A DNA stretch of 44,464 bases from a virus. Taxonomy: Duplodnaviria; Heunggongvirae; Uroviricota; Caudoviricetes. Shown here piece by piece: positions 12,174-12,998 of this stretch. Location of the stretch: positions 1 through 44,464 of IMG/VR virus record IMGVR_UViG_2571042862_000006, one strand, 5' to 3'. A program made the translations under genes and the position numbers. Below the pieces are notes generated by a model. That model did not search any database. It was given only the letters and a program-made list of their open reading frames with translations, and was not told where the DNA came from. Position 1 is the stretch's first letter, and every line of letters begins with the position of its first letter.

Positions 12174-12673
12174 TATTCGCTCCCGTTATCGCAAGGTTCC
12201 TTTCGCTGGAAGTAATTCCAACCGTTCCACTTCGCCAACTGGTTACCACTACCAACAGGCATACGGTTTGGATAACCGGACTTACATTTAGCGGCTTTTG
12301 CTCTGTCCATTGCAGACAGTTTGACGAGTCTCTCTTTCCCGTATCTGGCAGTGGTTATAAGTTTTGCAGACGCTTCCAGCGCATAATCCGGAGCAATGCG
12401 GCAGGCAAGGTTGAAAATGACGGCATTGATAGCGTTATTTGATAAACCGTGCTCATCGCCCGGATCTGGAGCGACATCTGCATCAGCGAAAATGTAGCCA
12501 ACGTTGATACCAGGTGACACATCACCGCCAAGCCATTCAGCCATCATCATTTCAAGGTCGTTGACGCCGTCTTCCATAGACTGCGGTTCGACATCGGTTA
12601 ACGTGGCATTTGATGCCACACCGAGCTTACGTAATGCCGCAAGAACTAAATCACCCTTCGTTGTCAGGTTCAT
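12173..12673 (-). CDS. Head completion / tail adaptor protein (P22 gp4-like)
   Basis: From [33 protein letters not shown] the sequence matches P22 gp4; start at 12673 has an AAGG upstream. The ORF-track N-terminal extension through the repeat (SQSQ...) is rejected. Confidence 0.8.
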
Positions 12674-12959
12674 CTGCTGCCGCCTTAGGTTTTCGACCAG
12701 GCTTTTTACGCTGTTTTTCTTCTGGCTCTGGCTCTGGCTCTGGCTCTGGCTCTGGCTCTGGCTCTGGCTCTGGCTCTGGCTCTGGCTCTGGCTCTGGCTC
12801 TGGCTCTGGCTCTGCAACATCATTCAGAAGATTATCAGGATGTGCAAACCAGCCAGCATCCAGATATTCCTGAAGCTCTTCGGCTTTCACGATTTCAAAG
12901 TCGTATCCAACGCCTTTCCATTTCTTCATGTCGCCATGACGAAAGATCATGTGTGTCAT
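12651..12959 (-). CDS. Small protein with a 15-unit Glu-Pro repeat and basic C-terminal tail, between coat and gp4
   Basis: ORF-track frame 12651..13007; start placed at an internal Met (MTHMIF...) preceded by GGAGA and downstream of the post-coat terminator hairpin. Which frame of the repeat is translated is not proven. Confidence 0.45.
12717..12814. repeat. Perfect tandem hexanucleotide repeat, about 16 copies of GGCTCT (plus strand)
   Basis: Read directly from the sequence; translates as (EP)n, (SQ)n or (AR)n on the minus strand and (GS)n, (WL)n or (AL)n on the plus strand. Confidence 0.95.
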
Positions 12960-12971
12960 GCTTGTCTCCAG

Positions 12972-12998
12972 ATAAAAAAGGGAGCCGAAGCTCCCTCT
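12972..12998 (-). terminator. Rho-independent terminator immediately downstream of the coat gene
   Basis: Minus-strand reading AGGGAGC-TTCG-GCTCCCT followed by TTTTTTAT, 10-30 nt after the coat stop codon. Confidence 0.55.

Follow-up and report, generated by a model that had tools for sequence, protein, structure and literature searches.

What does a perfect hexanucleotide tandem repeat do inside a small gene of a phage virion-assembly operon, and what happens to that gene when the repeat changes its length? The question is raised by the DNA of a virus of the Caudoviricetes (IMG/VR record IMGVR_UViG_2571042862_000006, positions 1 to 44,464; this whole stretch of 44,464 nucleotides is called the window here), in which, within a P22-like prophage, a small gene between the coat gene and gene 4 carries 15 uninterrupted copies of GAGCCA. 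Our analysis revealed that this gene is the counterpart of orf69 of phage P22. We consider it likely that the array is an in-frame, slippage-prone coding microsatellite in the spacer of the orf69 protein family, with a length that most probably drifts as the spacer tolerates change.

The repeat was identified by Tandem Repeats Finder (TRF) as a single array at 12721..12814 (period 6, 15.7 copies, 100% matches, 0 indels, score 188), and is by a wide margin the strongest repeat in the window. TRF gives it in the TCTGGC register of the plus strand; on the minus strand it reads GAGCCA x15 from 12812 to 12723, with GCA before and GAAGAA after. Ninety bases of perfect hexamer periodicity cannot have arisen by chance. 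An earlier note on this DNA had described about 16 copies of GGCTCT at 12717..12814, which is right to within 4 bases and one unit. The open reading frame (ORF) that contains the array starts with the ATG at 12959 and ends with the stop codon at 12653..12651, giving a layout of 49 residues, (Glu-Pro)15 and 23 residues. The same note had described a small N-terminal domain, 15 Glu-Pro (EP) dipeptides and a Lys/Arg/Pro-rich tail, and this layout is accurate for the 102-amino acid (aa) ORF. The gene and its parts are as follows:

12651..12959, minus strand: small late gene, 102 aa, homologue of P22 orf69 (phrog_1175), from the ORF list, the phrog_1175 match, RefSeq and BLASTP
12965..12969, minus strand: Shine-Dalgarno sequence GGAGA, 5 nt before the ATG of the small gene, from the sequence
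12813..12959, minus strand: N-terminal folded domain, residues 1-49, beta-hairpin plus helix, from the family alignment, the AlphaFold model of a sister protein and hhalign
12723..12812, minus strand: perfect (GAGCCA)15 encoding (Glu-Pro)15, from TRF and the sequence
12654..12722, minus strand: C-terminal tail, 13 residues with a conserved basic AT-hook-like motif and then a 10-residue acidic end, predicted to be disordered

Judged by sequence conservation, the coding frame of the small gene is the EP frame, as the earlier note had proposed. The encoded protein matches the family profile phrog_1175 with E=1.5e-31, residues 1-100 aligning with profile positions 1-72 of 72; RefSeq annotates the same frame, and the protein features are conserved even in relatives with as little as 31-38% identity. 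An identical ORF is annotated in RefSeq as a hypothetical protein of E. coli MS14385, where 501/501 compared bases match the window. A GTG-extended ORF reaching to 13007 was rejected, as RefSeq and all homologues begin at the ATG instead.

P22 orf69 (NP_059631) matches phrog_1175 with 4.5e-31, and BLASTP aligns the window protein with it at 38% identity (E=1e-7). The P22 gene (6135..6344 in NC_002371) encodes 69 aa, with the product MKIAIYKPGGSIMVWGVMAQMKVIDSSELPEYVKDGWLDHPSKLLPVEADDVKPRKGRKPKAVSDADKD, and overlaps gene 4 by 17 nt; the stem-loop that precedes it in NC_002371 is annotated as similar in location to stem-loops of phage HK97 and phage lambda. The statement in the earlier note that P22 has no gene here is therefore mistaken: orf69 fills the exact slot, after the post-coat stem-loop and overlapping gene 4, with an equal order of domains. 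The gene thus belongs to a long-known ORF family and is not an insertion peculiar to this prophage. Both proteins run from an N-domain with the pattern G...GW..HP through an acidic spacer to a basic K-x-G-R-K-P-K-A segment and a short acidic end. They differ in the spacer, which in P22 consists of 7 non-repetitive residues (PVEADDV) and in the window protein of (EP)15, and in the N-domains, which are only 38% identical.

Alignment of 13 family sequences revealed the invariant residues G9, G36, W37, H40 and P41 and, near the C-terminus, a conserved basic motif K-x-G-R/P-K-P-K-A that is present in the window protein; the conserved residues are held in relatives at 31-68% identity. Family membership of the window gene was thus found by every line examined, i.e., the profile match, the slot between the coat gene and gene 4, the conserved N-domain residues and the basic motif. 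Members of the family also lie between P22_CoatProtein and P22_Tail-4 genes in Symbiopectobacterium, Xenorhabdus and three metagenomic contigs. A tblastn search with orf69 returned 101 phage records, annotated as 'ORF69: unknown protein' or 'hypothetical protein'. We found no paper in the literature on the function of P22 orf69, on the GAGCCA hexamer repeat or on the motif of the endonuclease module described below; the 'ORF69' of PMC5155283 is an ORF of the unrelated Shiga toxin (Stx) phage Sp5 and not P22 orf69. A J-domain-like 'HPD' motif was also considered and set aside, as its Asp is not conserved (P22-type members have HPS) and Pfam gave no DnaJ match.

Based on structural modeling, the array falls in a predicted disordered acidic spacer between a beta-hairpin-plus-helix domain of ~45 aa and the basic motif KKPGRKPK. 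In the AlphaFold model of the sister protein, which has a homologous N-domain, this domain has predicted local distance difference test (pLDDT) values of 81-92, with strands at 3-14 and 17-24 and a helix at 26-34. Both folded domains of the sister protein are confident in the model, while its spacer and tail have pLDDT below 50-55. A single-sequence model of the window protein assigns no secondary structure to its spacer and tail. The net charge of the window protein is -18, to which the array contributes -15. The core of its basic motif is G-R-K-P, which is not the Arg-Gly-Arg-Pro core of a canonical AT-hook; the distant relative P0136 has the canonical AT-hook KRRGRPPK in place of KKPGRKPK. 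The DNA coding for the acidic C-terminal end also holds the ribosome-binding site and first codons of gene 4.

To what extent does the array vary? The earlier note had suggested comparing the repeat number across related prophages, and this was done in E. coli, where the 501-bp region is present in 217/5426 complete genomes, 173 of which cover >=80% of it. Matched spans of the small-gene type range between 417 and 609 bp and are offset from the 501 bp of the window by multiples of 6. A few spans are off by 1 bp, and sequence inspection places those indels in intergenic DNA outside the ORF. The repeat ranges from 1 to 33 copies among these prophages, with at least 18 distinct alleles. The arrays that were inspected directly are pure GAGCCA of 9, 15, 16, 18, 24, 29 and 33 units, plus one single GAACCA. 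All 9 sequenced small-type alleles, that of the window included, have an uninterrupted EP-frame ORF. In E. coli ECONIH6, the 29-unit allele (L008 539..784) is listed in RefSeq as a partial, incomplete pseudogene; its 130-aa ORF is intact, and the low-complexity repeat has probably misled the annotation. The structural module of the 33-copy prophage is intact as well.

The distribution of copy numbers was obtained from an evenly spaced sample of the ranked matches (n=48). One copy was found in 4 genomes, two in 7, three in 5, four in 6, five in 4, six in 8, seven in 4, eight in 3 and nine in 2, with one genome each at 15, 16, 18, 20 and 33 copies. The median is 5; 43/48 genomes have 9 copies or fewer and 5/48 have 15 or more, placing the 15 copies of the window at about the top 10% of the sample. 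Isolated phages, namely IME10, APC_JM3.2, Dewey, Louie, HZ41 and CurroJimenez_Bas106, contain 2-8 units.

Flanks that are 100% identical to those of the window carry 6, 7, 10, 15 or 20 units; therefore, the array changes faster than point substitutions build up. Together with the range of 1 to 33 copies, this supports the recent expansion and length polymorphism that the earlier note had claimed from the perfection of the array. Both N-domain haplotypes, ...PDNLLNDVA and ...PDDLLKDVA, are found with long arrays. In other lineages the EP run is encoded by GAGCCT x4 (one lineage) or GAGCCA x4-5 (others), or is absent, and short EP arrays thus arose or were reshaped more than once at the junction of the folded part and the basic tail. 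The protein P0037 (86 aa), from a 392-member cluster of E. coli and Salmonella, represents a common allele with an interrupted run, (EP)4-ET-(EP)2; a point interruption of this sort would be expected to make a microsatellite more stable. An exact-sequence search of the protein collection returned none of the four long alleles used as queries, one of which was two residues short; this result is not informative.

The array does not behave as a phase-variable on/off switch, as the 6-bp unit lies inside the ORF and no sequenced allele contains a frame shift. With changes only in multiples of 6 and an intact ORF in every sequenced allele, the suggestion of the earlier note that the array varies the linker length without switching the gene on and off holds. 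The array instead has the properties of a coding variable-number tandem repeat (VNTR) in a disordered linker: perfect repeats, polymorphism among close relatives, a preserved frame and a non-globular segment. The orf69 ORF family is already known, and a coding VNTR of this type is an ordinary length-variable linker, not a genetic switch.

We propose that slipped-strand mispairing during prophage or phage replication would change the length of the array. Such changes would be tolerated because they affect only the length of the spacer, and the array would therefore drift nearly neutrally. The 15-copy allele of the window would then belong to the long tail of a distribution with a median of 5. 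Diverged lineages have EP runs encoded by two different DNA units, and an acidic Pro-rich spacer is therefore probably favoured at the junction of the N-domain and the basic tail. With low confidence, we further propose that the protein is a non-essential two-ended tether made together with the head-completion proteins: its N-domain would contact another protein, and DNA or an acidic surface would be bound by its basic AT-hook-like motif. In the sister phages, the same chassis has an additional WDGH cassette. Several points weigh against this interpretation. Neutrality is something we infer, and the repeated origin of EP runs and the range up to 33 copies fit selection on length as well as drift. 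Close isolates from one study have equal copy numbers (strains H1, H5 and H6; strains 0H18 and 0H26), and the array is therefore stable over short timescales and not wildly unstable. As for the tether, the N-domain has a net charge of -7 to 0, which is ill-suited to a role in DNA binding, the basic motif of the window allele is not a canonical AT-hook, and neither folded domain resembled any solved structure in structure comparison.

The small gene is embedded in a conserved gene order, with the following neighbors:

13004..14299, minus strand: P22-type coat gene, 431 aa, immediately upstream of the small gene (Pfam P22_CoatProtein, E=1.3e-165)
12974..12998, minus strand: terminator-like hairpin GGGAGC-UUCG-GCUCCC followed by U6, directly after the coat stop codon, from scan and folding
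12173..12673, minus strand: gene 4 homologue, head-tail adaptor, 166 aa (Pfam P22_Tail-4, E=2.8e-58; RefSeq coordinates)
10755..12173, minus strand: gene 10 (Pfam Phage_stabilise, 2.9e-300)
9802..10755, minus strand: tail needle with an Sf6-type knob, 317 aa

The post-coat hairpin folds with -19.4 kcal/mol (z=-2.9) and corresponds to the annotated stem-loop after gene 5 of P22 (stem_loop 6102..6119). The probable role of the UUCG hairpin is to reduce transcription downstream of it or to make the coat mRNA more stable. The upper bound of 12998 that the earlier note had given for the small gene falls within this hairpin. The ATG of gene 4 lies 20 nt upstream of the stop codon of the small gene, so that the two genes overlap by 23 nt, and the ribosome-binding site of gene 4 is located inside the small gene, ~45 nt downstream of the array. 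The gene 4 product (gp4) starts at the position of the P22 gp4 start, and both proteins have 166 aa. The shaft of the tail needle consists of imperfect repeats of a 12-residue type, which makes the protein longer than P22 gp26 (317 aa vs 233 aa). Beside the coat gene of E. coli 47-1826 (L002 3230..3417), at a point where the scaffold gene is the direct neighbor in other prophages, an HNH endonuclease gene is encoded on the opposite strand, and its appearance is that of a free-standing homing endonuclease that has entered the head operon.

The slot between the coat gene and gene 4 is occupied by a second gene type in part of the E. coli prophages (~1/5 of those that match) and in phages L, ST64T, BTP1 and ST104. 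This larger gene encodes the 186-203-aa protein 'Orf186' (phrog_3769), and phrog_3769 proteins are also present in many Enterobacterales prophages as 'WDGH domain-containing protein'. In the phage L genome paper, orf186 is described as interrupting the conserved head-completion module, its detailed function being unknown (PMC8022706). Orf186 shares with the window gene the slot, a homologous N-domain and a polymorphic EP run, and in E. coli also an identical basic tail. It differs in having, between its N-domain and its EP run, a WDGH domain (PF25311) of ~100 aa that is absent from the window protein, and it has a second acidic linker before the WDGH domain. The sister protein of E. coli SJC33 (L003 1592..2203) matches PF25311 at 1.5e-39; Pfam gave no PF25311 match in the window protein, which is therefore not a WDGH protein, and phrog_3769 matches its N-terminal 51 residues only. 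Spans of the WDGH-type gene range between 779 and 803 bp in steps of 6. Homology between the small-type and WDGH-type genes breaks at the EP run and tail, and this alignment pattern suggests that the segment is a recombination junction between both gene types.

The WDGH domain has the invariant residues Ser-Asp-Gly-x-His-Thr-Phe-Asn, His-Arg and Trp-Asp-Gly-His, which point to a pocket for binding or catalysis. No solved structure resembling WDGH was found, and a PDB sequence search with the WDGH protein gave nothing significant. In another phage (L015 3501..4298, P0271; also in P0260, P0252 and P0276), WDGH is located between a Tad2-like (PF11195) and a Sequestin (PF21825) domain. Experiments have validated both of these as anti-Thoeris sponges, and such fusions served to discover sponges in the preprint in which Sequestin received its name (10.1101/2025.07.12.664507). 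By the logic of such fusions, there are hints that WDGH may be a candidate counter-defence domain; this reasoning is not applicable to the WDGH-less window protein.

The main rival to drift is that the spacer is adaptive and tunable. The (EP)n run would form a rigid polyproline-II-like rod, the length of which would be under diversifying selection and would set the reach from the partner of the N-domain to the partner of the basic motif. The array would in that case be no neutral locus but a quantitative contingency locus. This explanation, which we regard as unlikely, draws on the recurrence of EP runs at one junction in diverged lineages and from two DNA units, on the wide range of at least 18 alleles between 1 and 33 copies, and on the presence of long arrays on two N-domain haplotypes. 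The EP/KP rod of TonB, which works as a spacer, offers an analogy. The distribution, however, is strongly skewed to short arrays (43/48 at 9 or fewer), isolated plaque-forming phages have just 2-8 copies, and P22 and several relatives are without any repeat. A related proposal is that the orf69-type chassis is a tethering or delivery module, produced together with the head-completion proteins, that places itself, and in the sister phages a WDGH counter-defence cassette, on packaged DNA or on the capsid or portal. Its action would fall at the time of genome delivery or shortly afterwards, or at the moment when host immunity is triggered by capsid proteins, and the hypervariable EP rod would determine how far it reaches or serve as a polyanionic decoy. 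We hold this to be distinctly improbable; if true, it would define a new class of small phage accessory proteins with a built-in, heritable and tunable spacer. That the long (EP)n run is in itself a functional, regularly spaced polyanion, imitating nucleic acid or acting as a decoy for a DNA-binding or defence protein of the host and thereby giving the gene a role in counter-defence, is very unlikely. The strongly negative charge of the window protein, most of which comes from the array, fits such a role, and so does the WDGH domain of the slot-sharing sister gene with its fusions between anti-Thoeris sponge domains. Nevertheless, most alleles have 1-8 EP units and P22 has none, meaning that a long polyanion is not a conserved feature; PADLOC and Pfam gave no matches, and it is the WDGH cassette, absent from the window protein, that is linked to sponges.

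Two further alternatives would place the effect of the array outside the EP protein. The length of the array could modulate the translation of gene 4 through mRNA structure or translational coupling, for which the overlap of the two genes and the position of the gene 4 ribosome-binding site provide an opportunity. Partition-function folding over 0-33 units, in contrast, gave an unpaired probability of 0.30-0.41 for this site with no clear trend; in addition, the array is not self-complementary and P22 has an equivalent overlap with gene 4 in the absence of a repeat, leaving an action at the RNA level with little probability. It is hardly conceivable that another frame is the real one, whether as a (Ser-Gln)n extension of gp4 or as a plus-strand (Gly-Ser)n or (Leu-Trp)n product, or that the array is an assembly artefact. 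All three minus-strand frames and the plus-strand frames are indeed open across the array, but this openness is automatic because GAGCCA contains no stop codon in any frame. Only the EP frame unites the protein segments that are conserved across genera on both sides of the array, as the family alignment indicates. The (Ser-Gln)n extension (ORF 12173..12823, 216 aa) lacks a Shine-Dalgarno sequence and begins with TTG in E. coli SJC33 (L003). The earlier note had named as a refutation the detection of the gp4 product with no EP peptide; the alternative that this test targets is already unlikely from sequence, the gp4 frame being open across the array only for lack of stops in GAGCCA. As for an artefact, the 15-copy span recurs in three other complete assemblies (H12, H36 and H54), and many further lengths are present in long-read-grade complete genomes. 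Near-neutral drift of a tolerated spacer length, generated by slippage, thus is the explanation that we prefer.

These results are mainly a correction: the gene is a counterpart of P22 orf69, which is among the last ORFs still to be assigned in a model phage's virion-assembly operon, and current understanding is not overturned by any of them. The locus, with its at least 18 alleles, varies strongly and is easy to type, and can thus serve as a marker for P22-like E. coli prophages. The natural alleles of 1-33 EP units constitute a ready length series for asking what role orf69 has and how important the end-to-end distance is. In addition, the slot between the coat gene and gene 4 emerges as a modular family of orf69-type and WDGH-type Orf186 proteins, the parts of which raise two ideas, namely a module resembling those of homing endonucleases and a possible link to anti-Thoeris sponges via the WDGH fusions.

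Two observations were made elsewhere in the window. Direct repeats of 11 bp form two clusters at 28761..28792 and 28832..28858 (ATCTGCTGGTA / TGGTAATCTGC) inside a 299-aa ORF (28353..29252, minus strand). By analogy with lambda gene O, these repeats may be origin iterons, the ORF being located at the position expected for the replication initiator. ARAGORN called an 83-nt tRNA-Ala(CGC) at 30363..30445 on the plus strand, inside a 215-aa ORF (30165..30812); Rfam gave no tRNA at the gathering threshold and no family of any kind in the window, and the call is probably a false positive.

How does the protein compare with known systems? An exhaustive phmmer search with the 49-aa N-domain returned small members of the family together with GIY-YIG and HNH homing endonucleases (E=1e-6 to 1e-4), which match the N-domain in 4-6 stretches per protein. 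These stretches correspond to a tandem module of ~33 aa, GKIWINNGxxxKxIKxEELQxYLDDGWxxGR, present in 4-6 copies in the non-catalytic regions of the metagenomic endonucleases P0130-P0146. Profile-profile comparison of the family N-domain with 41 module units by hhalign gave a probability of 96.1% over 21 columns, a value that is partly circular, as the units were selected through the query; the endonuclease P0131 independently matches phrog_1175 at 2.2e-14. It is the strand-helix-GW part of the N-domain that aligns with the modules, and from this similarity the orf69 N-domain looks like a single diverged copy of the endonuclease module. The window protein differs in having one module copy, a longer hairpin, no nuclease domain and a net acidic character. 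We do not claim DNA binding by the N-domain because of this acidity (-7 to 0, vs an average of +0.9 for the endonuclease units). No catalytic nuclease domain (GIY-YIG, HNH, LAGLIDADG or related) was found in the window protein by Pfam, NCBIfam or PHROG. The module itself has no Pfam model and no literature match, and a PDB sequence search with its profile gave nothing significant.

The window protein resembles TonB in that a basic, Lys/Pro-rich stretch comes after an acidic EP run, and an extended spacer of this kind is a plausible physical analogue. Membership in the TonB family was rejected: Pfam TonB_N reached 19.3 bits vs a cut-off of 33, a compositional match confined to the EP run, and the NCBIfam TonB models reached 17-24 bits vs cut-offs of 265-315. 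Unlike TonB, the 102-aa window protein is a cytoplasmic phage protein with no hydrophobic segment, membrane anchor or TonB C-terminal domain, and Pfam gave no further domain in it. Lambda gpFI, a DNA packaging chaperone, shares the relative position (major capsid gene, hairpin, gene, head-tail joining gene), and both are small acidic proteins with two ends and a flexible linker. Homology to gpFI was rejected (hhalign 0.3%, no Pfam match), leaving a positional analogy only. As to the repeat, the closest parallel is found in orf232, in which a 15-bp repeat differs between phages L and ST64T (PMC8022706). That repeat is likewise a coding tandem repeat with a change in copy number without loss of frame; it belongs to another gene and has another unit, and the array type of the window is much wider in its range, between 1 and 33 copies.

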